Shown: positions 8,407 to 31,846 of the stretch, in pieces
Layout of the letters: the number at the start of each line of letters is the position of its first letter
Position numbering within the stretch: the first letter of the stretch is position 1
IMG/VR virus record: IMGVR_UViG_3300030099_006944
Span: 1 to 64,000 of that record
Source: a virus
Strand: one strand, 5' to 3'
Length of the DNA: 64,000 nucleotides
Position numbers and translations under genes: made by a program
The notes under the pieces: model-generated
Database searches by the model: none
Told to the model about the DNA's origin: nothing
What the model saw: the letters and a program-made list of their open reading frames with translations, nothing else

Positions 8407-8868
8407 ATGTCAAAAGATATGAAGCTGATAATGGAAACGTTTCGAAAAAACGTCGTACAAGAAAAAGAAGAATTGCAGACGGTTGGTGCCGTTTTAAGCA
8501 TCATACAGAAATTCCGACAAGCGAAAGCAGGTGGTGAGGCAGGCAAAAAAGCACTCGAAATGACCATTGAGCAAATTCCGATCGTTAGTAATATATGGAG
8601 CATCGTGAAGGGCGCCAAAGAAGCCAAAGATATGATCTCTACTCTATATGGGATGGATGATAAATTCCAGAGCAATACCGGACTAGACAAGCTTAACATC
8701 GATGATAATATTTCAAAGATAGTCGACGACAAAGTGGAGGCAGCGTTTTTAAATTTTTTAATTGACAAATTAGGAAAAATGAATCCAGACGCACCAATGC
8801 CAGACGCGTCGATTGAAATTCAAGATTTTTTAGCTAGCAAATTTGATCAACATACGATAAAAAAATAA
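8407..8868 (+). CDS. Putative virion-internal protein, MSKDMK-tag family
   Basis: N-terminus MSKDMKLIMETFRKNVVQE nearly matches ORF 25464. Confidence 0.65.
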   Translation: MSKDMKLIMETFRKNVVQEKEELQTVGAVLSIIQKFRQAKAGGEAGKKALEMTIEQIPIVSNIWSIVKGAKEAKDMISTLYGMDDKFQSNTGLDKLNIDDNISKIVDDKVEAAFLNFLIDKLGKMNPDAPMPDASIEIQDFLASKFDQHTIKK

Positions 8869-8880
8869 GGACAATTCCCA

Positions 8881-9153
8881 ATGAAGATAACAAAAAAACA
8901 ATTAATGGAAATCATCGAAGAAGCAATGACAGTGATGGAAGACGATGAGGCTCCGGAGCCCGGTGGCGAGACGATGTCGGATGTTGGGAGGGTCCTAACT
9001 TATATCGACAAGATAGACAACTATAAAGAATACGGACAACTATTACAAAAAATATTAGAACACGAAGTTAGAGGAAAAGATGTCGTTATGAGGAAAGTTT
9101 TAGGCAACCAAATAGCCAACGCAATCCTTAAAAAATTGGGTGGATCAAAATGA
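8881..9153 (+). CDS. Putative virion-internal protein, MKITK-tag family
   Basis: MKITKKQLMEIIEE. Confidence 0.65.
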   Translation: MKITKKQLMEIIEEAMTVMEDDEAPEPGGETMSDVGRVLTYIDKIDNYKEYGQLLQKILEHEVRGKDVVMRKVLGNQIANAILKKLGGSK

Positions 9154-9323
9154 AGTTGGAGTTATCACACATCATAGCACTATTGACCATTGGAGCAACG
9201 CTAGTGGGCTTTTATTACACTACAAATCACCGCCTAGACCATCTAGAAGATATCGTTGTAGAATTGAAAGAAAGGGATATGTTGCTTGAACAAAAGATAA
9301 ACAAAAAAGGAAAAAAGAAATGA
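9150..9323 (+). CDS. 57-aa TM plus coiled-coil protein (not in ORF track)
   Basis: MKLELSHIIALLTIGATLVGFYY...KINKKGKKK; ATGA overlaps at both ends. Confidence 0.55.
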   Translation: MKLELSHIIALLTIGATLVGFYYTTNHRLDHLEDIVVELKERDMLLEQKINKKGKKK

Positions 9324-9856
9324 GCAAAAGAAAAAGTCAATGGCCGTCACAATTTTCGCCGGTAAAACCATGGGAGTCGTTTTTGGTATATTTCGACAAA
9401 GGAGCAAAGGCTCCGCCCATTCCACCTAGGATGGTTCGAATAAAAGGAAGCATTGACGTACGTCACACTCTTAACCTTAAAAAAAATTATCAACAAAACA
9501 ACGTAATCATTGATATTCAGGTCGATAACATCACCCCTGATGGTAGACACACTCCCGTTGATATGTGGCTTAACGTTAGTGGTTACAACATAGAACCCGA
9601 CCCCGATGGGAAGTATATCGATATCGATGCATGGGTTCTCAAAAACAAAGGGATTTCCGATGACTTTGGTAATATCCTTGACCGTCAAGGAAAACTTGTT
9701 GCAACAAAGAAACAACAAAACAAATGGTCGGGCGTTCCAACGCACACTCCTAAGCCTCCGCAAAAACAAACTGATTCTAGCGGTAATATCATGGAAGGAC
9801 TTACCAAAGAGAAGTTGCACAAACTAATTGAACAGGTAATGAGAGATTTGAAATGA
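9320..9856 (+). CDS. Hypothetical protein with C-terminal tag-like helix
   Basis: Ends EGLTKEKLHKLIEQVMRDLK. Confidence 0.6.
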   Translation: MSKRKSQWPSQFSPVKPWESFLVYFDKGAKAPPIPPRMVRIKGSIDVRHTLNLKKNYQQNNVIIDIQVDNITPDGRHTPVDMWLNVSGYNIEPDPDGKYIDIDAWVLKNKGISDDFGNILDRQGKLVATKKQQNKWSGVPTHTPKPPQKQTDSSGNIMEGLTKEKLHKLIEQVMRDLK

Positions 9857-12027
9857 AGCTTAACAAAAAATATTTGTTCGGGCTGATAATGGAAGCCTTG
9901 GAAGACGATGGTTTATCAAACGAAGAGCGTCAAGATTTTTTCGCGAAAGCAATGGATCTTGCCTCTGTTGATTGGCCAAGTGTACAACAAGCATTAGAAT
10001 TAATTCAATACGTTAATTTTGACGAAAAACAAATGCAAGCTCTTAAGAGCACCATGGAAGATACAATTTTAGGCGCGAATGGGCCCGACGAACCCGGACC
10101 GGCTTTAAAAGAATTAGGCTTTGATTTTCACCAAATTTTTCAAAACGAAATGGGGTTTCGTCCTCCGGAAGGAGAGTTCGAACTAAAAAACAAAATCTTT
10201 TCTCTTCGGGCTAACCCCGGCGGTAATCGAATGGAGTTTGAATTTTATTTTGATCAACAAGGGCCGCTAGCGATAGAGCCTTTCTTTCATTTCAAAAGCC
10301 CTCTTCAACCATATGATGGCTATGTCGGAATGGACATGGACAGAGAGATCACTTTTTCTGCTGGCTCTGCTCGAACCTTTGGTGCTGATGAGATTACAAT
10401 ATCCAAGAGAGAGTTGCCCGGAAGACTTAGAAAAGCTATGGGTTTTGGTCCGGATGAGGACATCCCGGGATGGCCCGGATTACCGAAGGGATCGGCGCCA
10501 ACCATAAACGAAAACCAAGGGAATCTAGGATTCTCTACTGCTGAGGAGTTCGAAGAGTGGTTGTACTCCGAGTATATGAAGGGTGCAAAATATTTTAAAC
10601 AAGGTGCTGGGAACTTTAATCATGGTGAGTTTAAAAAGGTCATCAAAACTTTTTTAAATATCGAATGGAGACCTGCTAACAAAAGACCTTGGAAGGAACA
10701 CTCTATTCATGAACCTTTTGCGGCATATAGATTTATTGAAGAGGCTGATCACATGTTTCCTTTTATATGGCGTCTTTTAGGTCATGATAGGAGCCACAAG
10801 AGACCCGACGGGAAATCGTACGGATGGCAAGGAAGTAACTGGGAGGATAGGTATTATAGATTAAGGCATTCTTCTGAGCATCCAATAATTAAACGATTAC
10901 AAGACCTTGCAAAAAAGATGATGAATGCTCTTTCTTTTTCTAGTAGACAATTACCTACATTTAAAAAAGCGCTTGGCTTGAAAGAGTCCGGTAAACAAAA
11001 ATTAAATAAAGATTATTTGTTTCATATGATCAACGAGGTTCTTCGCGAAGACGAAGAAGAGCAAGAACCGATCGATATCTTAAAAGATAAAATTGAAAAC
11101 GTCATCAAACTAAAAGATTGGAGCTACTATGTCCAATTTTTTGAATTGATCGATACTTTCGAAGATAGCGCTTTAATAGAAAAGGAAGAGGCTAACGCAC
11201 TTCGCGAAAGGTTGTGGGGAGCCGTCTGGTTTTTAAAAGTTTATGATCGCGATAACTTGGATGAAGTTGCTGAATTATTTTTAACTCACAAAAACCTTCC
11301 GGAAGACACCAAAGAAGATATTCACTCTTCCATTTATTATTATGGTGGATATTTTAGGGATACCGAATGGACTCTCAAGTATGTGGCTAAATCGCTTGGA
11401 TTAAATTTGAAGATTGAAGCCATTGATCCTGATAATTTGTATGAACTTAGTGGCGCTGATGGAGATGATTTAGATAAGCTTAAGGATCACTTGCTTGAAT
11501 TGGGTGAAGAAGAGAAATACTTTGAGGTGTATCCTGAGACCGGAGGTCTGTTGTTTGGTGTGTTAGCAAAACCTTATGTCAACTTTGAGAAGAAAATAGA
11601 GGAAATTTTTGGCGCAACGCCGAGCGGCGATCCTATGATGTCTGGTGGTTCTATGATGACCGTCTCGATAAGGAAATCGATCGATGAACCTTTTGAGGCT
11701 CCGATGGTGAAGGGCAGTAAAGTAACAGCAGATATAATGTTTGAGTGGAGTCCGGAGACCGAGTATGGAATGGAGATCACTCTTCTTCCTGCTAAATTGG
11801 GAACTACACCACAAACATTGCTTGATGAGTATTATGGAATCTGGGTGAGTGTTGCACAAGAGGGTCCTAATATCGGAAAACTTGAAATTGGAATTCAAAA
11901 TTATGAGGATGAATTTGCGGACCACAAACAGGTTCAGAACAAAAACGGAACTTACGGATTTACTGTTGAAGAAATGAAAGACAAAATCAAAGAAATAACT
12001 GGAATTGACTTAAATGAAATTAACTAA
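9853..12027 (+). CDS. Large tagged protein with two modules
   Basis: MKLNKKYLFGLIME at the N-terminus and KLNKDYLFHMINE internally. Confidence 0.7.
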   Translation: MKLNKKYLFGLIMEALEDDGLSNEERQDFFAKAMDLASVDWPSVQQALELIQYVNFDEKQMQALKSTMEDTILGANGPDEPGPALKELGFDFHQIFQNEMGFRPPEGEFELKNKIFSLRANPGGNRMEFEFYFDQQGPLAIEPFFHFKSPLQPYDGYVGMDMDREITFSAGSARTFGADEITISKRELPGRLRKAMGFGPDEDIPGWPGLPKGSAPTINENQGNLGFSTAEEFEEWLYSEYMKGAKYFKQGAGNFNHGEFKKVIKTFLNIEWRPANKRPWKEHSIHEPFAAYRFIEEADHMFPFIWRLLGHDRSHKRPDGKSYGWQGSNWEDRYYRLRHSSEHPIIKRLQDLAKKMMNALSFSSRQLPTFKKALGLKESGKQKLNKDYLFHMINEVLREDEEEQEPIDILKDKIENVIKLKDWSYYVQFFELIDTFEDSALIEKEEANALRERLWGAVWFLKVYDRDNLDEVAELFLTHKNLPEDTKEDIHSSIYYYGGYFRDTEWTLKYVAKSLGLNLKIEAIDPDNLYELSGADGDDLDKLKDHLLELGEEEKYFEVYPETGGLLFGVLAKPYVNFEKKIEEIFGATPSGDPMMSGGSMMTVSIRKSIDEPFEAPMVKGSKVTADIMFEWSPETEYGMEITLLPAKLGTTPQTLLDEYYGIWVSVAQEGPNIGKLEIGIQNYEDEFADHKQVQNKNGTYGFTVEEMKDKIKEITGIDLNEIN

Positions 12028-12739
12028 AGAAAAATTAAAAAAACTTATTCTCGAAACAATGAGCGAATCACAATATTATTATGATGCGAGTGACTTAGAT
12101 ACTGACTTTGCTCAACAAGCTATCGAGATTGGACAATCCTTGGGGGATGAAGGAGAAAGAGATCGATCGGCGCAAGTCGACAAGTATGTTTCTCTCAAAG
12201 TAAACAAAGAACTCAAAAAAGCCATCGAAGAGCACACAAAAGAATTACTTAAAGACTTAACAAACGAAGCCGCACAAACCATGGGACTATTCGATAACGA
12301 TGACGAGGAATATTTTGAAAAAACTTGGAACGAACTCGAAGGGTTGTACACCAGAGCATTACGAAGACCTCTACAGGCTATGAAAGAATTTGACGGATCT
12401 CAGGAATCTATTGATAAATGGGTGGACACATTGAAAAGCGTTGAACGTGTTTTATATAAAGCAAAAGATCCCGGAATGTATTACCTAGGAAGACTTACAC
12501 CAGAACATCTTATTATTGGCGATACATACAACACTGGTAACACGTGGGATCTAGAAGGCTGGGATTATGAATACGATAAGATGTCAATAAAACCAGAAAC
12601 GGCAGTAAAAGAAGCAGAAGAGTTTTTCCGACCTGCTATTATGAAGACTATCATGGGCATTCAAAAACGTAAAACCGGTGTTGATGTTGGAGAAATGTTT
12701 GGCATCGATGAAGACAAAAAAAGATTAAATAAATTCTAA
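12014..12739 (+). CDS. Tagged hypothetical protein
   Basis: MKLTKEKLKKLILE. Confidence 0.7.
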   Translation: MKLTKEKLKKLILETMSESQYYYDASDLDTDFAQQAIEIGQSLGDEGERDRSAQVDKYVSLKVNKELKKAIEEHTKELLKDLTNEAAQTMGLFDNDDEEYFEKTWNELEGLYTRALRRPLQAMKEFDGSQESIDKWVDTLKSVERVLYKAKDPGMYYLGRLTPEHLIIGDTYNTGNTWDLEGWDYEYDKMSIKPETAVKEAEEFFRPAIMKTIMGIQKRKTGVDVGEMFGIDEDKKRLNKF

Positions 12740-12751
12740 ATCCTTCTATAA

Positions 12752-12777
12752 CCCCCTATTTACTTATATAAGGGGGG
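12752..12777 (+). promoter_or_regulatory. RBS-sequestering hairpin containing CTATTTA
   Basis: CCCCCT (12752-57) pairs with AGGGGG (12771-76) just before ATG 12785. Confidence 0.45.
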
Positions 12778-12784
12778 CTTATGA

Positions 12785-14368
12785 ATGTGGTTATTGGGAA
12801 TTTTATTTGCGTGTAATGACATAACACTAACAAAAGTACAGGATCCAGAGCCTGAAATTGTGGTTTTGCCGGAGATTATTGACTTTGGCAACATAAGGTC
12901 AGGAGAAGAGACTGGTGTAGAAGAATTAACTATTGTAAATGCAGGGGACGAAGTATTATTGCTTAGTCCCTTGAATCTTATTGCGGGTAATCACCGTTTC
13001 AGCATTGATCATGATGAAACAGAAGATTGGGAGTTACAACCCGGAGAAGGAATTCAAATTGATGTCTATTATGAGCCTCAAACATATGAGAGTAATGGTG
13101 GCCTCATAGAAGTCGTTTCTAACGACGATGAGAGCCCTCAGATTGAAGTTTTAGTTCTCGGCAAGGGTGATGCCCCTGTAATGACTGTCGAGCCAATCTC
13201 GTACGATTATGGGACGATTTCAATGGGCTGTGATAATGAAGAAAGAATCACTATTAGAAATGATGGCAACTTGCCTCTCACTGTTGATAGTGTATCGCAA
13301 ATGGTAACACAACCGGTTGATATCATTATGGAATTTGGTTCTCTACCTCCGCCACCTTGGGTTCTCGACCCAAATCAAGAAGTTGACTTTCTAGTTTCTT
13401 ATATTCCATCCGATGTTGGGCTGGATGAAAGTTCTATCACAGTTATTGGTGATGACCCTCAAACGCCAGAAGTAGAAGTTAGACAATTAGGTGATGGAGT
13501 AATAGAGCAATACATAATACAAACTCACGTACAAGAAGAGATTGCAATCTTAGACATTGTTTTTGTTATTGACAATTCTGGTTCGATGAATGTCTTTCAG
13601 CAACAGTTAGCTTCTCAAATGACTTCTTTCATGAATGTTTTTCTTGCCAGTGGTGCTGATTTTCATATGGGCTTCATCACAACTGATCGCGGTTTTTTAC
13701 AATGCAGTGGCGTAATTTGTTGGATTGACAATACCTCCGCTAATCCAGTCGACTGGGCTCAGGGAGTAATATCGCAAATAAATATTGGAGGGTCTGCTGT
13801 TGAGAAAGGTATTGAAATGGCCAAAAGATTTTTTGAGAATACGAATTATGATAATGGTGGTGCCCCCGGAACTTCTTTTTGGAGGAACGATTCTACTACG
13901 GTTGTAATTTATGTATCAGACGAACCTGATTTTAGTATTGGTGGCTGGTCTGCTTATACATATTTTTTCGACACACTAAAAGCTGATGTTGATATGATGA
14001 GGCATTTTGCTGTGATTGGAGATTATCCTTCCGGTTGTGGTTTTCAGTTTGGCGGTAATTTCAGAAATATTCAATTTGGATCAGGATATTGGGATATGAC
14101 TCAACGTTATAACGGAGACTGGTATTCGATTTGTGCAACAGATTGGGGTAGTCAAATGCAAGACCTAGCAAACACTGTTACTATTAGAAGCACATTTCCA
14201 TTAGACGAACCAGATCCGATCGAATCTTCTATCATAGTCAGTGTTAATGGTCAAGTGGTTACTGGTTGGCAATATGACTCCATAAGCAATTCTGTTGTCT
14301 TCAACGAAGATTCCATTCCGGAGTCTAGTCAAACCATTACGATCGAATATGGTATCTGGGGATGCTAA
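12785..14368 (+). CDS. Putative lipoprotein: two Ig-like (ASH/choice-of-anchor D-type) domains plus VWA
   Basis: MWLLGILFA-C lipobox-like; repeats PEIIDFGNI..LTIVNAG and PISYDYGTI..ITIRNDG; LDIVFVIDNSGSM MIDAS. Confidence 0.75.
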   Translation: MWLLGILFACNDITLTKVQDPEPEIVVLPEIIDFGNIRSGEETGVEELTIVNAGDEVLLLSPLNLIAGNHRFSIDHDETEDWELQPGEGIQIDVYYEPQTYESNGGLIEVVSNDDESPQIEVLVLGKGDAPVMTVEPISYDYGTISMGCDNEERITIRNDGNLPLTVDSVSQMVTQPVDIIMEFGSLPPPPWVLDPNQEVDFLVSYIPSDVGLDESSITVIGDDPQTPEVEVRQLGDGVIEQYIIQTHVQEEIAILDIVFVIDNSGSMNVFQQQLASQMTSFMNVFLASGADFHMGFITTDRGFLQCSGVICWIDNTSANPVDWAQGVISQINIGGSAVEKGIEMAKRFFENTNYDNGGAPGTSFWRNDSTTVVIYVSDEPDFSIGGWSAYTYFFDTLKADVDMMRHFAVIGDYPSGCGFQFGGNFRNIQFGSGYWDMTQRYNGDWYSICATDWGSQMQDLANTVTIRSTFPLDEPDPIESSIIVSVNGQVVTGWQYDSISNSVVFNEDSIPESSQTITIEYGIWGC

Positions 14369-14874
14369 CCCGTCATTATAGGTGGTGGCTAATTCTTTCT
14401 GGAATTGTTGGGTTTATTTTGGGGGTGACCTTGAAAATTGCTTGGGAAGAGAGTCAGTTTATCTTAGCCGAATGGGAAGAAGACCCTATCTTAGTTATAT
14501 GTCCTGATAGTCATTTGACCAATTATCGCGTTAGTAAAGCGGTTGAATGGTGGGGAATCCGCGGATATAATATTTCATATGTGCACTGGGACAGGAGCAA
14601 CGAAATATGTTCCAACACTTGGTCACAAGGAATGATTTTGGTTCGAGGCCAAGGCGAGTTACTGCCTGATACCTATGCTATCACTTCTAGATTAACAATT
14701 ATCAACAAAATGATTTCTGCTCAAATCATACTTCCAAACGATCGTAAATTTATGCCCAGATTGTTAGAACACGAACTAGGTCACGCTTTTGGTATGAAGC
14801 ATGTAGAGAAGATTGGACACATAATGCACCCAATACATGAGCAAGGCGGAGAAAAATTTTGGATTCCAGATTAA
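14362..14874 (+). CDS. Membrane-anchored matrixin-type (metzincin) protease
   Basis: N-terminal TM; HELGHAFGMKH; Met-turn HIMHP. Confidence 0.8.
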   Translation: MLTRHYRWWLILSGIVGFILGVTLKIAWEESQFILAEWEEDPILVICPDSHLTNYRVSKAVEWWGIRGYNISYVHWDRSNEICSNTWSQGMILVRGQGELLPDTYAITSRLTIINKMISAQIILPNDRKFMPRLLEHELGHAFGMKHVEKIGHIMHPIHEQGGEKFWIPD

Positions 14875-14888
14875 CATTTACCTCCAAA

Positions 14889-14904
14889 CTATTTATTGTG
14901 AGGT
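14889..14904 (+). promoter_or_regulatory. Candidate late promoter/RBS 16-mer
   Basis: CTATTTATTGTGAGGT, identical to 25210-25225. Confidence 0.55.
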
Positions 14905-14911
14905 GGAAGTA

Positions 14912-16513
14912 ATGAAGATTCGGATAATAAAAGAAGTTATAAGTAAGAGCGGTGACAAGTGGGTTGTGAAATCAAAAAAGGGAAAGACCCTAGGCACACA
15001 TGATTCTGAAACAAAAGCAAAAGCACAATTGGCAGCCATCGAGGCTAGCAAGAATGAAGAACAATTGGAAGAAATTTCTTCTGTTGGCAGTGGTGCTGTT
15101 CAAGGTTATGGAGCTCCGCTAGGTAGTAAAAAAGACAACGAAGAATTCAATGAAAGTGAAAAACAAGCCTCTAAACTCAAAGGAAAAAAATTAGCAGAAA
15201 TGTTTTCTTCCTCGACACAAACAGGTGGTTTGCGAATTAGTATCGTACGGGGAGAAAAAGAACATGCTGGTCATGTAGAAAGAGCCAGACACCAAGGTCT
15301 CAGAAACGTAATGAAAGAAGATGATGATGCTACTTTACCTATGGATGACAGCACTAGGCCTTTACCTGATGCTAAACCAATCCCTGTACCTCGTGATCCA
15401 GTGGAAGTCATGTTGGAGAAAAACGGATATAAGCTCAAAAAGAAACTAGGAGAAGGACAGTATGGAGTTGTTGTTCTTGCTACTGAGATTGACGAATATG
15501 GTGGTCACAATTTCGCTATTAAGATCTTAAAGAAGACTGGTGGAGAAGCTATAGCACGTGAAGTTAGAAACTATCGAGAGATATCTAGTGCTCGCGATAA
15601 AAACCCGGTAATTGCAAAGCATTTTCCAGAAGTCTTTAAGATATTTGAAGAAGAGGGGAACACTTTTATTGTAATGGAAGTATTGGAGCCTCTGCATGCT
15701 GAATTGAAGGGGATTTTTAGCGGAGTTGAACAGATTATGCATAAACAAAGACCTATGATGGCGCCGAATTGGCCAATCTCACAATTTGACAGCGACAAAG
15801 ATGTATCAAAAAGAGTTGAAATGATGTTGGATGACTCTAAGCAGATTGCTAATCTGATTGATGTTGTTAAAAGGAGACTACTAACGTATTCTACTGAGTA
15901 TAATAAAAAAATAGAACCACAAGTTTTAAAAGATATAGAGACCGCTATAAACCCAAGTGTATTCGCGAACTTCCGGAGTGTGTCTAGAAAAGAAGCTAGT
16001 CAAAAAGTCAATCGGTTTAACGACCAAATTTTAGATTATCTTGGCGGGGCGGCAGGAATTTACTCATCTATCATGACTGATATGAAGAATTCTCCTGCTA
16101 GTCAAGTTTTTGTCACATTGATGTGCAAAAAGATTATAGAAATAATGAAACGTTATACCCCACAAGGTGACAACGTCAAAGATTTTACTGAATTTATCGT
16201 CAAGCCCTTCTTGGAGCGGTTCCAAAAACAATATAGGATGTCAACTTCTCTCAAAGGTGGCTATTCCCAATCAGATATTGGCAAAGAAGGAGGCAGAAGA
16301 GATGATGCTGAGAGTATCTTTCAAGCAATTATGGGCCTTCAAAAAGAAACAGGGTTGTTTGCTCGCGATTTACACGACGGAAACGCAATGAGAAGGCCGG
16401 ATGGTGACATTGTAATAGTAGATGTTGGAATGTTTAAAACAGACACTGAACTAAATCAAATGAAAAAAGGAAAACTCCGGGAAAACCGGATCAGAATCAA
16501 AATAAAACGTTGA
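14912..16513 (+). CDS. Tagged protein with Ser/Thr(Tyr) protein kinase domain
   Basis: LGEGQYGVV; FAIKIL; helix-C E (AREVRN); IVMEVL; RDLHDGN; IVDVG. Start chosen after the GAGGT RBS. Confidence 0.8.
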   Translation: MKIRIIKEVISKSGDKWVVKSKKGKTLGTHDSETKAKAQLAAIEASKNEEQLEEISSVGSGAVQGYGAPLGSKKDNEEFNESEKQASKLKGKKLAEMFSSSTQTGGLRISIVRGEKEHAGHVERARHQGLRNVMKEDDDATLPMDDSTRPLPDAKPIPVPRDPVEVMLEKNGYKLKKKLGEGQYGVVVLATEIDEYGGHNFAIKILKKTGGEAIAREVRNYREISSARDKNPVIAKHFPEVFKIFEEEGNTFIVMEVLEPLHAELKGIFSGVEQIMHKQRPMMAPNWPISQFDSDKDVSKRVEMMLDDSKQIANLIDVVKRRLLTYSTEYNKKIEPQVLKDIETAINPSVFANFRSVSRKEASQKVNRFNDQILDYLGGAAGIYSSIMTDMKNSPASQVFVTLMCKKIIEIMKRYTPQGDNVKDFTEFIVKPFLERFQKQYRMSTSLKGGYSQSDIGKEGGRRDDAESIFQAIMGLQKETGLFARDLHDGNAMRRPDGDIVIVDVGMFKTDTELNQMKKGKLRENRIRIKIKR

Positions 16514-16538
16514 CAAATAGCAAAAAACGTGTTATAAT
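16510..16538 (+). promoter_or_regulatory. Consensus sigma70 promoter
   Basis: TTGACA-17nt-TATAAT with extended TG. Confidence 0.8.
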
Positions 16539-16556
16539 ATATTAAAAGGACAAGAG

Positions 16557-18099: not shown

Positions 18100-18101
18100 C
18101 G

Positions 18102-18239: not shown

Positions 18240-18243
18240 AAAA

Positions 18244-19206: not shown

Positions 19207-19213
19207 TTAAGGT

Positions 19214-22225: not shown

Positions 22226-22259
22226 TACTACACACATAATATAACCAAAGGAGAAAAGT

Positions 22260-23693: not shown

Positions 23694-23706
23694 GAGAACC
23701 AATACT

Positions 23707-24030: not shown

Positions 24031-24049
24031 TTACTATGTGGAGAATTTA

Positions 24050-24538
24050 ATGACGCTAAAATTGGACGCTTCATGGCGACCTATAGAAATCATACCAGCC
24101 GAGAAAGCTTTCTCAATGGTTTATACTGGACGGGCACAACCTGTTGAGAATTATACTCACGGGCCATGTGCCCGTTTTCTGTTTCCATCCGTGATCGTTC
24201 TTAAAAACTACATCCAAAAAAGAAGAATAACAATGGCACCCACAAGAAAAAATATATATTGGAGAGACAAATACATCTGCCAATATTGCGCCGAGCCATT
24301 TAAATACAAACAGTTGTCTTTGGACCACGTCATTCCAAAGTCAAGAGGGGGTGATAGAGGTTGGTTAAACCTTGTGACCTGTTGTCACCGCTGCAATCAA
24401 AAGAAAGGTAACAAAACGCCTTCTGAGGCCTCTATGATACTAATTAGAGAGCCATCAATACCACAGGTATCTATAATAGACTTTTATCATCATATTGATG
24501 TGCCAAAAAATTGGCTAAATTTTATTGTGAGGAAATAA
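24050..24538 (+). CDS. HNH endonuclease (McrA-like)
   Basis: RDKYICQYC; DHVIPKSRGG; NLVTCCHRCNQKKG. Confidence 0.9.
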   Translation: MTLKLDASWRPIEIIPAEKAFSMVYTGRAQPVENYTHGPCARFLFPSVIVLKNYIQKRRITMAPTRKNIYWRDKYICQYCAEPFKYKQLSLDHVIPKSRGGDRGWLNLVTCCHRCNQKKGNKTPSEASMILIREPSIPQVSIIDFYHHIDVPKNWLNFIVRK

Positions 24539-24972
24539 TGAAAATAAAAAGAATAATGGTTAGCGGAGGTTTCGACCCCGTGCATATAGGTCATATTCAA
24601 ATGATCGAAAAAGCATCAGAATGGGGCGAAGTGATTGTCGTAATAAATTCTGATGATTGGCTAATGAGAAAAAAAGGTTATGTCTTTATGCCATGGAAAG
24701 AAAGAGCCTATATAATGGGTAACATCAAAGGAGTATCTTTGGTATCAGGAGTAAACGATGAAGACGGAACAGTTTGTCAAGCCATCGGAATTCACAGACC
24801 AGATGCGTTTGCAAACGGTGGAGATAGAAAAAAAGATAATACTCCGGAAATGGAGTTGTGCGATGAACTTGGCATTCAAATGATGTGGGGCGTCGGAGGA
24901 AAAGATAAACCACAATCATCATCGTGGTTAGTAAATAAAGCAATGGAGCAATTAAATGGAACTAGGAAATAA
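24538..24972 (+). CDS. Cytidylyltransferase-like nucleotidyltransferase (TagD/RfaE family)
   Basis: SGGFDPVHIGH (HIGH motif); FANGGDR; SSSW. Confidence 0.85.
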   Translation: MKIKRIMVSGGFDPVHIGHIQMIEKASEWGEVIVVINSDDWLMRKKGYVFMPWKERAYIMGNIKGVSLVSGVNDEDGTVCQAIGIHRPDAFANGGDRKKDNTPEMELCDELGIQMMWGVGGKDKPQSSSWLVNKAMEQLNGTRK

Positions 24973-25198
24973 AAATTTAGAGAATTTTCTCAAAAAAGCG
25001 GAAGAAGATCCGGAGTTGATGGAGATACTGAAAGGTATAGTTTATTACTGTCAAGCCGCTTCGGAAAAGGGTATACCCCTCGAAGAGGTAGCATCTGCCG
25101 GTACCGTTGGGTGGACAATTGGACAAGACCCTAGGTTGAAAGAAATGTTGAAACACCTAATTAAGATTAGTGAAATGGGTTTAGGAACAGAACATTAA
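24956..25198 (+). CDS. Hypothetical protein
   Basis: Operon packing; GGAG upstream. Confidence 0.55.
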   Translation: MELGNKNLENFLKKAEEDPELMEILKGIVYYCQAASEKGIPLEEVASAGTVGWTIGQDPRLKEMLKHLIKISEMGLGTEH

Positions 25199-25209
25199 TC
25201 CTTTACAAT

Positions 25210-25225
25210 CTATTTATTGTGAGGT
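25210..25225 (+). promoter_or_regulatory. Candidate late promoter/RBS 16-mer
   Basis: CTATTTATTGTGAGGT, identical to 14889-14904. Confidence 0.55.
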
Positions 25226-25233
25226 AATCTATT

Positions 25234-25464
25234 ATGTTTTTGATGTTAATTATGAATTTGGCCTTCGCCCAAGACGAAGGACGTACTGTCACGTACAAGA
25301 AAAAGACAGAAATCGACTTCGAAGGAGTTGATGTTTCTGGTGAACTCGTAAAGCCCCAAGGTGCACTTTTGCTTGATCGTAAAAGAGCCTCTTTCAATCC
25401 GTTGATTAAATTACGTTCAGACTTTAATCCGGAAATGTCCTCATCGGTGTCGGAGATTAAATAA
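25234..25464 (+). CDS. cglF: Homolog of myxobacterial gliding protein CglF/GltF
   Basis: Signal peptide ..LAFA-QD; KKKTEIDF..V.V.GEL.KP.G..R..F..LIKLRSDFNPE..SV pattern recalled from the CglF family. Confidence 0.75.
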   Translation: MFLMLIMNLAFAQDEGRTVTYKKKTEIDFEGVDVSGELVKPQGALLLDRKRASFNPLIKLRSDFNPEMSSSVSEIK

Positions 25465-26828
25465 TGTCGAAAGATATGAAAAAGATAATGGAAGCGTATC
25501 GTAAGGGTATTTTGTTGAACGAGAAACGTTATTCCATCGGTGATATTAGATACAGAAAAGACAAAAAACCTAGTGCCGACGTCAAAGGATCTGATTTTGA
25601 TAAAGACGGCGTAGAGAACCAATTTGATGATGTTCCTTTTGACGCAAATTTTCACGATATAGATGGAGTAGATCAGGAAAAATTTGCGGACGCAGTCGGA
25701 GTAGATCCGAATGTTATAGGGAGAGGAATAACCGATACCCTATCAGATAAATTTAAAGATTATTATAAGAGTCAAGGTGTTGAAAACCCGCGAGATATAA
25801 CAGAGCCAATACCCGCTGGTCCAGATCCAGATCAAGAAAAATCAGCAGACGGAGATCAAGAACCATCTACTGACCTAGACCAAGAAGAGATAGCTGCCGC
25901 GTTAACGACACTGGATCCGTCCAACTTCGGAAAAGGGGCCAAAGCAGTTTACAATGATGGAGAAGTTACTGTTTTTGAGTTTATGGAGTGGATGTCGGGC
26001 CGTGAGTTATTGAAGAGTAATTTTGAAAGGTTCAAAGAAAACCTTCAAACATTTGCCCAAAATTTTGCAGAAAAAAACCCTAAGATAGTAAAAATGCTCC
26101 CGGGCGATGCCACACTAAGAGGTTTGATTGGACAAACTATAACTTTTTTCGAGGAGCAAGGTTATGCATTATTAAAGGGCGGCGCCAAAGGAGGCCTCTT
26201 GGATGTGATAGCAGGGATTCTTGATCAAGCCGGTGTACCTAACACATTAGGATTCCGAAGAATGCTAGCCAGAGTGATAAGCGCAGCCATAATCCAAACA
26301 GCAACAGATAAGGCAGAAGATATTGTTGATGGTGTAATTAAAAAATTAACAGATTCATCTAATTCGTTAAAGAGAAAATCTATGAAGATCATGACCGTCG
26401 GTGACGACGGCAAACCAGTGTTAAAATACAACCAAGACATCCAAGAAATGTTTGACGTGCCGGAGGAGATTGTGAAAATGTTCCAAGGGAAATTACAAGA
26501 CAACGGACAAAGACTAATCAGTAAGTTTTTTAATGAATATAGAACAAATCTAGTTAAAATATTCGAAATGGCAAAAGAGGCAACTAGCGATCCGAAGAAG
26601 TATCAGAACATCATTAATCAAGATCTAACAGAATTTCTAAAAGATCAAGACACAAGCACCAATGCTGCCAAAGACGCGTTGGAATATATAAGAAATGCTT
26701 ACAATTTAAAAGGAATAAAGGTCACAACGAAAGCCAATGATGAGAAAGGAACGTCTTCTCGTACTGTCACTGCTGGTACTGTGAATGAATCCAAGCGTCG
26801 TCGCATAGTATACCGAGGAAAGAAATGA
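25464..26828 (+). CDS. MSKDMK-tagged protein with Ca-binding-like motif
   Basis: MSKDMKKIMEAYRKGILLNE; DFDKDGVENQFDDVP (TSP3-like). Confidence 0.7.
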   Translation: MSKDMKKIMEAYRKGILLNEKRYSIGDIRYRKDKKPSADVKGSDFDKDGVENQFDDVPFDANFHDIDGVDQEKFADAVGVDPNVIGRGITDTLSDKFKDYYKSQGVENPRDITEPIPAGPDPDQEKSADGDQEPSTDLDQEEIAAALTTLDPSNFGKGAKAVYNDGEVTVFEFMEWMSGRELLKSNFERFKENLQTFAQNFAEKNPKIVKMLPGDATLRGLIGQTITFFEEQGYALLKGGAKGGLLDVIAGILDQAGVPNTLGFRRMLARVISAAIIQTATDKAEDIVDGVIKKLTDSSNSLKRKSMKIMTVGDDGKPVLKYNQDIQEMFDVPEEIVKMFQGKLQDNGQRLISKFFNEYRTNLVKIFEMAKEATSDPKKYQNIINQDLTEFLKDQDTSTNAAKDALEYIRNAYNLKGIKVTTKANDEKGTSSRTVTAGTVNESKRRRIVYRGKK

Positions 26829-29800
26829 ACAATAAAGAACTTTTAATCGAGTTATACAGCCACCCATTAGTCCAACGAATGCTTATCAAGGAACTTTTGA
26901 CCAAGCGTCAATTAGTAGAATTGGTTTTGTTGGAGAAGAAAAAATGGTATCACGGCCCATGGTACAAAGAAAAAGAAGAAACAACCTTAGACCGAAGAGA
27001 CAAAGCAGATAGAAACACATCTAAGATAGCTTCAACAGTAAAATCAAAAATAGATTCATGGACGAAGCCTCTCGGGGGCAAAGCCGATGAATTAATAGAC
27101 CCAGAAAAAAAAATAAGCAAAAAGACTTACGATGGCGCTTTTAAAAAGACAAAGAGAGAAATTGCCGCCAAGCTAGACGAAAAATCGAAATCCAAACAAA
27201 AGGTTTATTCCAAAACAGGGACAGATGCGACGGGGTCTAAATATACAAAAGAAGGTGGTATCTATTACACAAAACAAGATAAAAGTAAAGGGTCGGATCT
27301 CGCAAATATCTTTAAAGACCTTTCAAGTTCCCTAGGGAAACCGAAATTTCAGGGTAACACAATAAACAGACCAACAGTGACATTCTTGTTGTGGTTCAAA
27401 AAAGTTTCCGAGCTAGATTGGAACAATTTCAAGACAGAAACGGAAGCATCAGTCATACAAGAATCAAAAAATCCGAAAAAGTTTTTAGAGAGAACTCAGA
27501 AAAATCTTGAACAAATTGCCCTTGAAATTGGATTAAAAATAGTAAAGCAAGCTATGGATGATTTAATAAACGACAAAGACCTATCGGAAGAAGTGAGAGA
27601 ATACGCTGAAAAAAATATTCCGAAGTATATGAAAGCTCGAAAGGATGCTTCTAATAACTGGACAGACCCAAACCACCAGTTTAGATCTTTGCTTCTGGCG
27701 TTAGGAGAATCATCGCAAGATTTTTATGAAAAATACCTAAAATTAAACGACACTAGATGGCTTGATAAATTGGAGAAAGAAGAACGGGCAGCTATCAAGA
27801 GATTTATAAAGCTTTATAAAGCAGAGTTTTTAGCTAAAAAATGGCAAAACACACAAGAAATCAATGAACAGGACGAGGGAGAAAACGATGGGTTGCAAAC
27901 TTTTTTGGGCTTAGAGGTCTTCGCGAAAGAGTTATCAAAGTCACAAGCAACAGAGATCTGGAACAAACTTGATGATGCAGAGAAACAAATCATAGTTAAT
28001 TTGGTGAAAGAATATCCAGAGGGTTTTAACAAATACCTTTATGGAAGAGCAGATACTCATGGGGATATTTGGGGCCTCGAAGATGAAATGAGTAACAGAC
28101 TTATTAGAGCCTCAGAAGAAGAAATAGAAAAAGCCAAAGAGCGTCTCGAAATGGAAAAGAGACAAAAGAAAGAAAAAGAAGAAAAATATGAAAAAACCCG
28201 AGGATCCTTGAAGAAGATCCTTCCTTTTGCAATAAACAAATCTGCGCGATTAATCAAGGCTTTGGAAAAGATGGTGTCTTTCTTAGACAAAGATACGTTA
28301 AAAGATCCCGGAGGACCAGAGCTTGGAAAAAGAGAGTTCGTATCAGAAGATATGAATCCTCCAATGAAAAGTAGACAACAAATCAAAGATCAACTAGAAA
28401 AAGAATTAAAATATCAAAAAGAATTAATGAAGTTGTTGGAGTTTTATTTCAAAGTATTTGTACAAGAGAAAGACAAGCTCCAAGATGCTAATTTTCTAGA
28501 TCAAATGATATTGAAGGCAAAAAATATCGTAAGAATGATGAAAGAGATTCTAGCAGATGCATCTGATTCCATAAAGACAAAGTTCGTTGGTGGTGATGAA
28601 GAAGGTACCCAAGAACAAGCGGAAGAGGTCTTGGAGACAGAACCAGAGCAAGCAGTTAACGAGCAACAATCCGGCACTTCTGCAATCGATAATGCAAACG
28701 AGTGGATACAGGCAATAGAATCTTTAATAAGAGACAATTATACTCGCTTAGAGAGAGTTTATGGCGAAACCAAGAAGGTACTATCTGATCTCAAAAAGGG
28801 TCAATTTGAACTGTCCTCTGAGTTACAAGATATCTTGAATAGAACCCTAGGTAGCAAAGTCATTGATTTGTTTGACAAGGCCTTGTCGGACCTCAAAAAC
28901 AATTTACCGATGGAAGATTATAAAACTAAACTTAAAAACATATCCGATCTAGAAAACCGCGACTTAGTGGGCTTAAAACCTGACGTCGAACCGGTAACAG
29001 AAGCTCCCGAAGATCAAGAAACCCAGCCTGCTAACAAAGAACAAGCCCAAAGAGAATTCATCCGTACGTACGATACTTTTGAATCCCATAAAAATGTAAC
29101 ATTAAAAGCTTTGGAGGGCCTTCGAAGGAGTCTCGATTCTGTCGATCAAGAAAAATACTTTGCATTCTTTCAATTAGCCGGTAAGACAGCAGAGAAGATT
29201 ACAGAATATGATAATTCGCTAAACGAGATAAAGAAGTTTCTGGCAAACCCGACAAACGTACCGGACTATATTAAAATAGGAGAAAAAGTCAGAAAGAAAG
29301 AAGAATTGATCCCTAAGCAAGGAAAACAACTTATACCAGCAAAATATGCCGAACAAATTAAGAATTCCATTGGTCAACAAGATGAGTTGAAGAGACTCTA
29401 CGATGATCAACAAGGACAAGGTGGTTTGTCAATGGAAAAAGTAGAAGAATATATGTCTGACGTCTCGCTGGTTATCGATGTTTTATCCGCTGCTTCCGCC
29501 GCAACCGGTGTAGGCCTTCCAGCAGCCGCTGCTCTCCAAGCCTTAGGTAAAGCTTTGACGGTAGGAGAGATAGCAAAGAAACTAGCAGATGGTGACTTTG
29601 CAGGAGCCGGTACCAAAGCAGTACTGATGCTGATGCCCGGAGAAAAAATAGCTAAATATTTAGGCGGAGCCGCTGGGAAGGTTGCCGCAAACTCATTTGG
29701 AAAATTCCTCAAACCGCTATCGGATTTTATGATAAAAAATCCAGACAAAGCTGGCGGTGTTATTGATTTATTAATAACGGGAGTTGGGCAAAAATTAGAC

Positions 29801-30166
29801 AACGACGACACACCTGAGGAGACAACAGGAACACCTGCCGGAAAGATAGAGAAAGCCAAAACTGAACTAGAAGAATTAAAAGAAGCCATAGGCAAAACCA
29901 ACGCAGCTGATGATCAAAAGAAAAAATGGATTGCATTTATTAACGATGCAGTGAATAGAACGGTTGCTATGGGCGAAGAAGATCTAACCGATGAACAATA
30001 TTTGAAAATATTGCTCGATGCAAAGCAAACTATAACCAACCAGATCAAGCAATTTCAGAACAATCAGGGAAACGAACCCAAACAAGAACACATAGAGCGA
30101 GCATTAAAGCCGATAATAGAACAACTACTAAGAGGTAAACATGGCGAAAAAGAACTTTATTATTGA
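26825..30166 (+). CDS. 1113-aa helical protein, candidate internal/ejection protein
   Basis: Repeated hydrophobic-x-E junctions; Gly/Ala-rich hydrophobic segment near the C-terminus. Confidence 0.65.
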   Translation: MNNKELLIELYSHPLVQRMLIKELLTKRQLVELVLLEKKKWYHGPWYKEKEETTLDRRDKADRNTSKIASTVKSKIDSWTKPLGGKADELIDPEKKISKKTYDGAFKKTKREIAAKLDEKSKSKQKVYSKTGTDATGSKYTKEGGIYYTKQDKSKGSDLANIFKDLSSSLGKPKFQGNTINRPTVTFLLWFKKVSELDWNNFKTETEASVIQESKNPKKFLERTQKNLEQIALEIGLKIVKQAMDDLINDKDLSEEVREYAEKNIPKYMKARKDASNNWTDPNHQFRSLLLALGESSQDFYEKYLKLNDTRWLDKLEKEERAAIKRFIKLYKAEFLAKKWQNTQEINEQDEGENDGLQTFLGLEVFAKELSKSQATEIWNKLDDAEKQIIVNLVKEYPEGFNKYLYGRADTHGDIWGLEDEMSNRLIRASEEEIEKAKERLEMEKRQKKEKEEKYEKTRGSLKKILPFAINKSARLIKALEKMVSFLDKDTLKDPGGPELGKREFVSEDMNPPMKSRQQIKDQLEKELKYQKELMKLLEFYFKVFVQEKDKLQDANFLDQMILKAKNIVRMMKEILADASDSIKTKFVGGDEEGTQEQAEEVLETEPEQAVNEQQSGTSAIDNANEWIQAIESLIRDNYTRLERVYGETKKVLSDLKKGQFELSSELQDILNRTLGSKVIDLFDKALSDLKNNLPMEDYKTKLKNISDLENRDLVGLKPDVEPVTEAPEDQETQPANKEQAQREFIRTYDTFESHKNVTLKALEGLRRSLDSVDQEKYFAFFQLAGKTAEKITEYDNSLNEIKKFLANPTNVPDYIKIGEKVRKKEELIPKQGKQLIPAKYAEQIKNSIGQQDELKRLYDDQQGQGGLSMEKVEEYMSDVSLVIDVLSAASAATGVGLPAAAALQALGKALTVGEIAKKLADGDFAGAGTKAVLMLMPGEKIAKYLGGAAGKVAANSFGKFLKPLSDFMIKNPDKAGGVIDLLITGVGQKLDNDDTPEETTGTPAGKIEKAKTELEELKEAIGKTNAADDQKKKWIAFINDAVNRTVAMGEEDLTDEQYLKILLDAKQTITNQIKQFQNNQGNEPKQEHIERALKPIIEQLLRGKHGEKELYY

Positions 30167-31484
30167 TACGAGCGTATTCCTATCAGACTCAAACTGCTTT
30201 TACAAGTTTCAAAACAACGATATATTTGTACCCCTTAAAGTATTAGAAGAAATTGACAAACACAAAAAGCGCCAAGACACCGTTGGCCATCATGCAAGGC
30301 AGGCAATAAGAACATTTGACGTTCTAAGGGGCGCTGGTAGCCTTTCTAAGGGCGTACGCATCGCCAAAGGGTTAGGGGTGCTTCGTGTAATCAAAGCGTC
30401 TGAAATATGCCTCAATGAGCTTCCTAGGGACCTTACGCACCAAATGTCCGATCACCTCATTTTAGCAACAGCGTTGACCATCAAAAAAGATCAACCGAAA
30501 AGAAAGACAGTTGTTGTGTCACGTGATATTAACATGAGAGTGATAGCAGACGCGTTAAGTCTGTTAACAGAAGATTACAGTAACTCTCAGGTTGTTGAGA
30601 ACACTGATAAAATATATGAGGGGTTTACAAAACTTTTGGTAGATGAAGAATCAATCAATCAATTTTATCTCGGAGATGATGTATATTTAGATGAGGATGT
30701 TGTAACAGAACAAAAAATTAAGCTATATCCGAATGAGTTTGTTATGTTAGTGTCATCTAGTAACGAAAAAAAAACGGCACTTTCCAGATTTACTGATTAT
30801 TCCAAACCACTACGTCACATTCGAGATTTAAAAAATGAATTAATGTGGGGTATCCATCCTCGAAACAAAGAACAATCCTTTGCGTTTGATTTGCTATTTG
30901 ATGATGAAATACCATTGGTATCTCTCATAGGTAAAGCCGGCTCTGGGAAGACCTTGATGGCCATTGCAGCCGCTTTGGAACAAGGGCTAGGGGGAAAGGG
31001 TGACCAATACCGTAGGATCATTATATCGCGCCCTGTACAGCCTCTGGGGAAAGACATTGGTTTCCTTCCGGGAACGATGGAAGAGAAAATGCTACCTTGG
31101 CTCAAACCAATTCAGGATAACATTCGTCACCTCATGGGAGACGATCGTACTATGCTCGAAGCCTATGTTGAGAAAGGAAAAATCGAAGTTGAGGCATTAA
31201 CTTACATAAGAGGACGGTCAATTTCTAATGCGTTTGTAATTATAGATGAGGCACAAAATCTCACAGCACATGAAGTCAAGACGATTATCACTCGGATTGG
31301 CGAGAACACAAAAATTGTTTTAACTGGTGACATTGAGCAAATTGACAATGTATATACTAATGAAACAAGCAATGGTTTGACGTATGCTGTTGAGAAGTTT
31401 AAAGAAAGTGAACTTGCCGGCCATATTACATTTAGAAAAGGAGAGCGGAGTAAACTCGCAACAGCAGCCGCAAAATTGTTATGA
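30141..31484 (+). CDS. phoH: PIN-domain plus PhoH ATPase
   Basis: FIIDTSVF..LEEIDKHK (PIN); GKAGSGKT; YIRGRS; IIDEAQN. Confidence 0.9.
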   Translation: MAKKNFIIDTSVFLSDSNCFYKFQNNDIFVPLKVLEEIDKHKKRQDTVGHHARQAIRTFDVLRGAGSLSKGVRIAKGLGVLRVIKASEICLNELPRDLTHQMSDHLILATALTIKKDQPKRKTVVVSRDINMRVIADALSLLTEDYSNSQVVENTDKIYEGFTKLLVDEESINQFYLGDDVYLDEDVVTEQKIKLYPNEFVMLVSSSNEKKTALSRFTDYSKPLRHIRDLKNELMWGIHPRNKEQSFAFDLLFDDEIPLVSLIGKAGSGKTLMAIAAALEQGLGGKGDQYRRIIISRPVQPLGKDIGFLPGTMEEKMLPWLKPIQDNIRHLMGDDRTMLEAYVEKGKIEVEALTYIRGRSISNAFVIIDEAQNLTAHEVKTIITRIGENTKIVLTGDIEQIDNVYTNETSNGLTYAVEKFKESELAGHITFRKGERSKLATAAAKLL

Positions 31485-31846
31485 AACTTACAAAAGAAAA
31501 ACTTAAACATATTATTTTAGAAGAACTCAACCAAATGATCACAGAGCAGGACGGCGTCGATTTTCAGGGCATGTTAGCCAGTGAAACAGACGATGAAGAT
31601 CTCTATCAGAGGATGGTACTAGCAGCAGACTCTGGGATTTTAAACTTCGAGGAAGAGGAAATCGAAAAATTTTTAGATGGATATAGAAAATCTATGGATG
31701 CAATGGATTCTATCGGAGGCCTCCAAAACAAAGATAATTGGTCTGATGAACAATCGACAATTGCATACAACCAATCAGATGATCTGAATTTTTACAGAAA
31801 TACTTCTAGAAGTATATTAAAACAAGCCGGCTTACTAAAACAATGA
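31481..31846 (+). CDS. Tagged hypothetical protein
   Basis: MKLTKEKLKHIILEE. Confidence 0.7.
   Translation: MKLTKEKLKHIILEELNQMITEQDGVDFQGMLASETDDEDLYQRMVLAADSGILNFEEEEIEKFLDGYRKSMDAMDSIGGLQNKDNWSDEQSTIAYNQSDDLNFYRNTSRSILKQAGLLKQ

Follow-up and report, generated by a model that had tools for sequence, protein, structure and literature searches.

The window analysed here is the first 64 kb of the 187,355-bp virus record IMGVR_UViG_3300030099_006944, which is rated as complete by CheckV and carries nearly all of its genes on the plus strand. The phage is a T4-type myovirus of 187 kb, and the genes of interest are those for proteins that begin with one of two short leader peptides, termed class A and class B, followed by bodies that are unrelated to one another. 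Those found in the window are collected in Table 1, together with the heptamer CTATTTA and landmark genes from the whole record; genes are referred to throughout by their first position. The closest cultured phages are distant: the protease shares 49% identity with its counterpart in Microcystis phage Mel-JY01 and 44% with the one in Flavobacterium phage vB_FspM_immuto. The lineage is abundant in the sea, since at least 596 related stretches occur in IMG/VR and the family of one leader protein, 18244, accounts for 564 protein clusters in public metagenomes, including those of Tara Oceans. Gene slots and protein bodies were compared with those of a collinear relative of 191.7 kb (G001), and leaders were sampled both from 80 loci around the protease gene of relatives and by scanning IMG/VR for DNA encoding KQIIKEEL.

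Table 1. Leader genes, CTATTTA motifs and landmark genes of the record; bit scores refer to the class A leader profile unless stated otherwise
Feature	Position	Strand	Remarks
CTATTTA	8359..8365	+	48 nucleotides upstream of 8407; at the head of the compact gene run 8407-12739
Class B leader protein, 153 residues	8407..8868	+	starts MSKDMKLIMETFRK, I-M-E at residues 8-10; 29.7 bits (class B profile)
Class A leader protein, 90 residues	8881..9153	+	28.4 bits; acidic body, isoelectric point (pI) 5.3
Leader-like stretch LTKEKLHKLIEQVMR	9800..9844	+	C-terminus of the 9320-9856 protein, abutting the next gene start; 8.1 bits, weak
Two-module protein, 724 residues	9853..12027	+	leaders at residues 1-18 and 383-399 (DNA 10999-11049); 26.1 and 16.2 bits
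Class A leader protein, 241 residues	12014..12739	+	22.3 bits; acidic body, pI 4.7
CTATTTA	12756		ahead of 12785
Putative Ser/Thr kinase gene	14889 (CTATTTA)..16513	+	most likely start 14912, MKIRIIKE...; neither class A nor class B
CTATTTA	14889	+	23 nucleotides upstream of 14912
Class A leader protein, 125 residues	18244..18621	+	widespread, highly conserved family
CTATTTA	25210..25216	+	24 nucleotides upstream of 25234, ahead of class B gene 25464
Class B leader protein, 454 residues	25464..26828	+	starts MSKDMKKIMEAYRK; 28.1 bits (class B profile)
Class A leader protein, 121 residues	31481..31846	+	31.9 bits; very acidic, body pI 4.06; between PhoH and fatty-acid hydroxylase genes
Glycosyltransferase cluster	33.8-40 kb
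gp55-like late sigma factor	45993-46685
CTATTTA	57082
Baseplate wedge proteins	57-59 kb
Portal protein	96979-98913
Class B leader protein	100286-100996		outside the window, between portal and protease genes
Peptidase_S77 (gp21-type) prohead protease	101418-102026		domain 101514-101945, 118.8 bits, above the curated cut-off
Scaffold-like protein	111049
gp23 major capsid protein	112359-114221

Class A leaders follow the consensus MK[IL]TKxxLxx[IL]IxE, and a profile built from the first 18 residues of 11 such leaders scores between 21 and 32 bits at eleven start codons in the genome. Five of these are in the window (8881, 9853, 12014, 18244 and 31481) and further N-terminal copies lie outside it at 84889, 91285, 91894, 93439, 94696 and 102031. 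An internal copy at 10999, which corresponds to residue 383 of the 9853 protein, reaches 16 bits, and weak scores were obtained at 85306, at 144239, at an internal site (86227) and at the C-terminus of the 9320 protein. Eleven of the twelve strong matches are located at a start codon, with the exceptions to the N-terminal position being the internal copies at 10999 and 86227 and the C-terminal remnant at 9800. Twenty residue-shuffled proteomes gave a top score of 8.5 bits and none at 16 bits or above, as against the 11 real matches, and the minus strand contains no match of 9 bits or more. All six sites that the original prediction had assigned to class A, comprising the five starts in the window and the internal copy, are recovered in this way; of the variants that it added, the one at the C-terminus of 9320 is present at a weak 8 bits and those in 19214 and 20240 received no profile score. 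The stretch at 9800 has 10 of 14 residues and 28 of 45 bases in common with the leader of 12014, making this the closest pair of leaders, and it is probably the remnant of an old leader left behind by a gene fusion.

The same leader recurs in relatives, where 129 of the 130 class A matches at the 80 sampled loci are on the protease strand. Among the 115 unique sequences obtained, E14 is invariant (115/115) and is followed by I12 (114/115) and L8 (108/115) as the most conserved residues after Met1; position 11 is mostly I (96), less often L (13) or M (5), and a second [LM]xE ending at residue 22 is found in 64. Conservation reaches residue 16-22 and has a helical periodicity. The IMG/VR scan of public viral contigs gave 151 matches to KQIIKEEL, of which 126 occupy residues 9-16 of an open reading frame (ORF) starting MK(I/L)T; about 15 more are shorter N-terminal forms, bringing the N-terminal total to approximately 140, and a handful look like chance. 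When 18 long records were picked for the leader only, 15 proved to encode Peptidase_S77. The protease is encoded in all three of the complete leader-bearing records, and the three records that are negative for it are fragments, 43-62% complete.

This conservation resides in the peptide. The 40 nucleotides upstream of class A starts are unrelated (30% identical), and synonymous codons are almost free to vary, with codon identity at identical leader residues being 50% compared with the 43% expected from codon usage; the leader is therefore under selection as a peptide and not as DNA. Mean nucleotide identity among leaders is 62%, and AAA and GAA codons are abundant just downstream of their start codons. 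A tblastn search with a 24-residue leader found no match in cultured phages, profiles of both classes gave only chance-level matches in the PDB, and no paper was found on these motif strings or on capsid-targeting leaders of marine phages. Whatever becomes of the capsid interpretation developed below, these leaders are among the most position-constrained peptide motifs of marine viromes.

The bodies that follow the leader are unrelated. The class A bodies encoded here, 13 in number and between 79 and 724 residues long, show no mutual BLASTP similarity (best E = 0.009), which agrees with the earlier claim that leader-sharing proteins are otherwise unrelated. When leader proteins of the relatives are included, BLAST sorts the resulting 118 into 87 clusters. 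Eleven of the 13 have a body pI of 4.0-5.9. Neither the class A bodies nor the class B bodies in the window matched a Pfam or PHROG family above threshold: for 8407 there was one sub-threshold Pfam match (HEAT_EF3_GNC1, 17 bits against a cut-off of 27), and for 25464 no Pfam or PHROG family was found and the ESM Atlas gave nothing usable. The otherwise leader-bearing run 8407-12739 also includes a 57-residue protein with one membrane helix (9150-9323).

Not every leader protein is variable, however, as the 18244 family is strongly conserved and nearly invariant over 60 residues. All 52 aligned members keep the leader and its L8-x-E10, with E14 replaced by Gln in 17 of them. A single weak PHROG match (E = 0.0014) is to an uncharacterised family, and a low-confidence AlphaFold2 model (mean predicted local distance difference test score, pLDDT, 60.6; predicted template modelling score 0.26) suggests that residues 5-19 form the leader helix and residues 30-86 a long helix, with a disordered linker (20-28) between the two. 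The conserved helix of this family (..ESWVQAKLTKAADYL..) was also seen within a 708-residue core protein (T4-GC 119) of cyanophage S-SM2 (GU071095, 91801-93927), the gene for which sits between two terminase genes, and within an 841-residue protein of the immuto phage.

Class B leaders have the family consensus MxK[LI]IME[NS]W[RK]xFLxE and thus contain both I-M-E and F-L-x-E. A loose form of this pattern has 42 matches across this genome and its relatives; the coding strand accounts for 40, and almost all are N-terminal. The 8407 and 25464 proteins have only their first ~16 residues in common, and their leaders are diverged members of this wider family, so that the class B leader originally proposed for these two genes has been borne out and enlarged into a real N-terminal family. 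Outside the window, the class B protein 100286 is modelled by AlphaFold2, at high confidence (pLDDT 86.7), with a GNAT acetyltransferase-like fold, to which the leader is attached as a detached helix of low confidence; every top PDB match of the model is a GNAT, with borderline E values of ~1e-3. Relatives have between one and three tandem copies of this protein, each with a class B leader, and at three relative loci an extra module of 225 residues is located between the leader and the GNAT domain. In one relative the class B leader is followed from residue 23 by a complete AAA_33 kinase domain, which is the sole enzyme-domain match found in the Pfam and PHROG searches of leader proteins. Leaders of both classes are thus placed by AlphaFold2 as detached helices ahead of a flexible linker, the class A model being of low confidence.

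A third class, consisting of basic beta strands in 14912, 16557 and 25464, had also been proposed and was rejected as a common tag, as the pattern [KR][IV][KR][IV].. is found 21 times in plus-strand frames and 17 times in minus-strand frames, which is chance level. All that a relative retains of it is the N-terminus MK[IV]RI[IL]KE in the kinase slot. The kinase gene itself most likely starts at 14912 and not at 14837; its product has a Pkinase match of 30.4 bits, just below the Pfam cut-off, and a short N-terminus ending in I-K-E, and the G001 slot places MKVRILKE on a 139-residue protein without a kinase, with the same CTATTTA motif ahead. All that precedes the HAD-Nudix protein (16557) is an unrelated extension of 17 residues, the HEXXH peptidase (14362) begins with a transmembrane helix and the adjacent 12785 protein has a lipoprotein-type signal. 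An arsenal of enzymes in the window, as originally envisaged from the kinase, HAD-Nudix and peptidase genes, is unsupported, because these enzymes are without a class A or B leader and were linked to the tags through the chance-level class C, and because two of the neighbours are exported or membrane proteins. Enzyme-like bodies with a class B leader do occur outside the window or in relatives, as the GNAT fold of 100286 and the AAA_33 kinase show. Neither the 9853 protein nor the kinase had relatives in viral contigs by a word-based search.

Of the two genes at 12785-14874, the first encodes a protein that combines a lipoprotein signal with Ig-like (HYDIN/ASH/DUF1573) domains and matches VWA below threshold, and the second a matrixin-like HExxH peptidase anchored in the membrane. 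CTATTTA lies ahead of them at 12756 and both are 75-78% identical in G001; they look like an exported pair of proteins, probably made late by the phage.

Comparison with G001 reveals how the leader genes are exchanged. Flanking genes are 70-90% identical between the two genomes, and G001 has its own leader genes with non-homologous bodies in the same slots. No G001 homolog was found for 8407, 8881, 9320, 12014, 25464, 31481, 91285, 91894, 93439, 94696 or 102031, and in the case of 31481 the gene is missing from a slot in which both flanking genes are conserved. The six-gene slot 8407-12739 is occupied in G001 by one ORF of 1483 residues, which starts MKVTSKLLMEMVQE and has internal leader copies at residues 585 and 1357 that resemble both copies of the 9853 protein. 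A protein-cluster search returned a sole, partial homolog of 9853 (P0002), in which both leaders and the C-terminal module (76% identity) are kept and the N-terminal module is different. Internal leaders are in this way retained at module joints in three genomes, with the flanking modules swapped or only 24-30% identical, and the leader is the best-conserved element of the fusion joints. The G001 ORF and the comparison with P0002 show that modules exist either as separate genes that start with a leader or as in-frame fusions with the leader retained at the joint. In all, both class A and class B are real N-terminal leaders under strong constraint, carried by proteins that are unrelated and exchangeable.

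A protein of 1113 residues encoded at 26825-30166 has no family match, and the G001 slot holds a 1361-residue protein with which it shares only its first ~30 residues (MNNKE.. HPL[VI]Q..). This is a further case of a retained N-terminus with a replaced body.

Several observations connect the leaders with the head machinery. Seven of the 13 class A genes lie within the 17 kb adjoining the terminase, portal and protease genes (p = 6e-5), and 102031 directly follows the protease gene. The protease matches the structure of T4 gp21 (5JBL) with E = 7e-21 and has His and Ser where the 5JBL chain has Ala, at positions that we take to be the mutated catalytic residues of T4 gp21. In the capsid protein, L-R-E/A aligns with the maturation cut L-T-E/A of T4 gp23 (the slash marks the cut, whose position follows from the PDB chains, the mature one being offset by 65 residues from the precursor) and is invariant in eight relatives. 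The N-terminus of the protease, MSKTLLRE, resembles the LIE-9 site near the N-terminus of T4 gp21 (PMC9026906). The scaffold-like protein 111049 contains 20 (I/L)xE sites where ~11 would be expected. Between the portal gene and a point just past the protease gene, 98903, 100286, 102031 and 102263 all have an N-terminal hydrophobic-x-x-hydrophobic-(I/L)-x-E; T4 holds its core proteins gp67 and gp68 in the portal-protease interval.

The plus strand has 26 copies of the heptamer CTATTTA and the minus strand has 4, and 14 of the 26 plus-strand copies lie 20-65 nucleotides upstream of a start codon (binomial p = 4e-12). It precedes sheath, tube, scaffold-like and baseplate genes as well as 8407, 12785, 14912, 25234, 102031 and 145999, and in G001, which has 40 copies on the gene strand and 8 on the other, the motif is kept at orthologous slots that include that of 8407. 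Judged by its position, CTATTTA is probably the late promoter of this lineage, and as such would differ from the T4 late promoter TATAAATA, which was rejected as a promoter here, having 8 plus-strand copies that are mostly within genes. The motif is also found ahead of a gene outside the window (165347-165904) for an extremely acidic 185-residue protein starting MAKKLLSEAQVRRFAKLANL; the same N-terminal motif is seen again in G001 and in two proteins of the immuto phage. The protein may represent a third leader family or be of scaffold type.

The reference point for such leaders is the capsid-targeting tag of T4, MKTYQEFIAE (PMC8442874), which is removed by gp21 from IPI, IPII, IPIII and Alt (Mullaney and Black 1996, as cited in PMC9026906; PMC3012670; PMC8442874) and in which suppressor analysis assigned residues 4 and 7 mainly to targeting and residues 8 and 10 to processing (PMC9026906). 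The spacing of these residues is common to all three leaders, as Y4/F7/I8/E10 of T4 correspond to L8/I11/I12/E14 of class A and to W/F/L/E of class B (e.g. W10/F13/L14/E16). As a positive control, the pattern hydrophobic-x-x-hydrophobic-(L/I)-x-E was sought in the first 26 residues of 270 T4 ORFs, and the 20 that matched include IPII, IPIII, gp24, Alt and gp68. This T4-calibrated pattern thus recovers known substrates but is weakly specific. In the present genome it occurs in 19 of 208 N-termini and in 6 of 208 segments at residues 30-56, and 13 of the 20 matches across all ORFs start at residue 8.

Leaders of similar type were noticed in cultured phages as well. T4 gp61.1, a hypothetical protein of 54 residues (NC_000866, 18966-19130, minus strand), has the N-terminus MKTFKEFIKE, which is a near copy of the T4 tag. 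Three genes of S-SM2 (GU071095, 49522-50103, 91376-91804 and 130761-131987) start MKTLGQFLAE, MKTLKQFLKE and MKSFFQFLSE, T4-like in sequence and register, and one of the three lies between the small and large terminase genes. In the cultured phage vB_FspM_immuto_3-5A (MW353176), 19 of 215 N-termini have the T4-type pattern, with approximately three recurring leader families (MKKSxLxxxIKE.., MENFDLKKFLVENKL and MKKQILSEQFxRMQxLAGIITE); its N-termini include MKKSQLRQIIKEAL, MKKSELVKLIKEEL and MENFDLKKFLVENKL.

We consider it fairly probable, from the sequence comparisons, that the class A and B leaders are N-terminal capsid-targeting propeptides in the manner of T4, in an expanded variant. The phage is uncultured, and late timing, targeting, cutting and injection are all steps that we infer. 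In the mechanism we propose, the genes behind CTATTTA, at least, would be expressed late together with the structural proteins, and the amphipathic leader helix would tie each protein to the scaffolding core of the prohead. The gp21-type serine protease (101418-102026) would then cut after the Glu of (I/L)-x-E, at I12-x-E14 in class A and often also at the second [L/M]-x-E at residues 20-22, and at L8-x-E10 in the 18244 family. Cutting would free the body within the head, with the internal leader copies serving as the cutting joints of fused proteins. T4 internal proteins and Alt are injected with the DNA, and some of the cargo here would probably be injected likewise, while others may belong to the core and be degraded as the head matures; injection is less certain than targeting and cutting. 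The original prediction of a modular system of tags ending in (I/L)xE has consequently fared unevenly: its N-terminal leaders and its unrelated bodies have stood up to analysis, and the presence of a T4-type protease and the swapping of bodies between relatives fit it, whereas its enzyme arsenal in the window has not been supported. The phage is moreover a 187-kb T4-type phage with a canonical S77 protease and not a jumbo phage of phiKZ type. A bolder form of the reading is tentative and on balance doubtful, namely that the two classes make up a plug-and-play address code, with class A on small acidic proteins and class B on enzymes (GNAT, P-loop kinases), by which 15-20 exchanged proteins and polyproteins are loaded, cut and injected.

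A number of observations weigh against the capsid-targeting reading. The T4-calibrated pattern also matches ~14 T4 proteins that we do not recognise as gp21 substrates, and (I/L)xE is in any case common in helices rich in Lys, Glu, Ile and Leu. The class A and B profiles score at best 5-7 bits among T4 ORFs, missing IPII and IPIII, and the class B profile found nothing in cyanophage S-SM2; since the profiles find nothing in T4, the likeness to the T4 tag is one of layout, and homology is not demonstrated. Most bodies are acidic (pI 4-5), unlike the basic internal proteins of T4. Internal leader copies, and the C-terminal copy in 9320, are atypical of the T4 tag, and the replacement of E14 by Gln in 17 of 52 members of the 18244 family means that cutting there would need L8-x-E10. 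Most class A genes of the cluster at 85-95 kb are without a well-placed CTATTTA, and that this motif is a late promoter is itself something we infer.

Some of these points would be accommodated if the leader did target the prohead but the proteins were accessory scaffold or core components, similar to T4 gp22, gp67 and gp68, that are degraded and expelled and not injected. Like scaffold and core proteins, they have small, acidic bodies with much helix or disorder, several of the genes occupy the T4 gp67/gp68 position from the portal to just past the protease, and the scaffold-like 111049 protein is itself enriched in (I/L)xE sites (20 against ~11); moreover, a body as nearly invariant across hundreds of phages as that of 18244 would suit a structural partner better than an effector engaged in an arms race. 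We nevertheless think this account unlikely, as the replacement of whole bodies between collinear relatives, and the 87 clusters among 118 proteins, are not what would be expected of a conserved assembly machine, and GNAT and AAA_33 kinase folds with class B leaders are hard to fit into it. Little credence is likewise given to the idea that the leader proteins make up a single, fast-diverging family of small acidic proteins for host takeover or anti-defence, in which the conserved N-terminal helix binds a common cytoplasmic partner, of host or phage, without head targeting or cleavage. DNA mimics and early takeover proteins are typically small and acidic, the lack of a recognisable domain in class A bodies is compatible with common descent and rapid divergence, and five of the class A genes are remote from the head module, some of them without CTATTTA. 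A plain helix, however, would have no need of the strict residue-1 register (126 of 151 matches), its invariance would not be expected to fall on exactly the positions of T4-type processing, and neither the leaders kept at internal joints of fused proteins nor the clustering of genes beside terminase, portal and protease would follow from it; a second leader class also behaves alike on known enzyme folds.

Two further explanations leave the head out of account altogether. In the first, the leader would be what a modifying enzyme of the phage recognises, as in ribosomally synthesised and post-translationally modified peptides, and the genome does encode many transferases, for example in the glycosyltransferase cluster at 33.8-40 kb and among its GNAT-like proteins. 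This is very improbable, given that the S77 protease is the only enzyme shown to co-occur with the leader and that the GNAT-like proteins themselves carry the leader; a recognition tag for a radical S-adenosylmethionine enzyme in particular was rejected, as the complete 187-kb genome has no match to PF04055, to which 14 of 14 control genomes matched. Scarcely credible is a constraint on DNA or mRNA, in the form of a translation-initiation enhancer or a recombination cassette, for which the AAA/GAA-rich codons after the start and the exchange of cassettes at leader boundaries might speak. The codon comparison (50% against 43%), the upstream comparison (30%) and the mean nucleotide identity of 62% are all at odds with it, as are the conservation to residue 16-22 with helical periodicity and the 28 of 45 bases shared by even the closest leader pair, and a DNA-level repeat or translation signal was rejected on the codon and upstream comparisons.

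If the leaders are head-loading tags, as the capsid-targeting reading holds, a simple sequence rule would pick out the proteins that common ocean phages deliver at the first moment of infection. The T4 counterparts of such proteins act in anti-restriction and host takeover, and the marine ones are almost all annotated as 'hypothetical'. The rule would cover hundreds of gene families that cannot at present be annotated, would explain the hypervariable slots beside the head genes and would turn long multi-module proteins into predicted cleavage products. Should the address code in its bolder form also be true, the injected arsenal would be far larger and more modular than the three internal proteins and Alt of T4, and a ready tag would be available for finding injected effectors in marine viromes. 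If the capsid reading is wrong, the leaders would need another explanation.

Among known systems, the polyvalent proteins of phages and conjugative elements (Iyer et al. 2017, PMC5512222) resemble the fused proteins described here in being long proteins of exchangeable modules (724 residues for 9853 and 1483 in G001); they differ in that here copies of the leader separate the modules and no known effector domains were detected in them. In the phages phiKZ, 201phi2-1 and SPN3US, proteases of the gp175/gp245 type process head and ejection proteins (PMC5694885, PMC9026906). The cutting predicted here would be similar in taking place after Glu at a short motif, with several redundant propeptide sites and with many internal head proteins processed. 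Those phages, however, have S/A-x-E motifs, propeptides often exceeding 100 residues, diverged proteases and an inner body, together with a jumbo genome and a virion RNA polymerase, an enzyme for which no search was made here, whereas the present phage has a 187-kb genome with T4-type gene order, a canonical S77 protease, short leaders and an (I/L)-x-E motif.

The closer parallels are with the T-even phages. It is established that their internal proteins differ from phage to phage, have nothing but a leader in common and inhibit type IV restriction enzymes (PMC3012670, PMC12373910), with Ip1, Ip2 and Ip3 having the leader alone in common and each blocking a different GmrSD type IV enzyme (Repoila et al. 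1994, as cited in PMC3012670 and PMC12373910). As at the T-even ip loci, genes with a conserved leader are here swapped for non-homologous ones at fixed slots between conserved genes, but most of these slots adjoin the terminase-portal-protease module or belong to a block at 8-32 kb, and some members (the 18244 family) are strongly conserved. With T4 itself this system has in common an N-terminal leader ending in (I/L)-x-E with the spacing hydrophobic-x-x-hydrophobic-(I/L)-x-E, a gp21-family protease, an L-x-E cut site in the capsid protein and a tag which is all that unrelated proteins share. It departs from T4 in the length of the leader, which is 14-22 residues with an added MK(I/L)TK head in place of the 10 residues of T4, in having two leader classes in one genome and ~16-18 tagged genes compared with the 4-5 of T4, and in the presence of leaders inside fused multi-module proteins.

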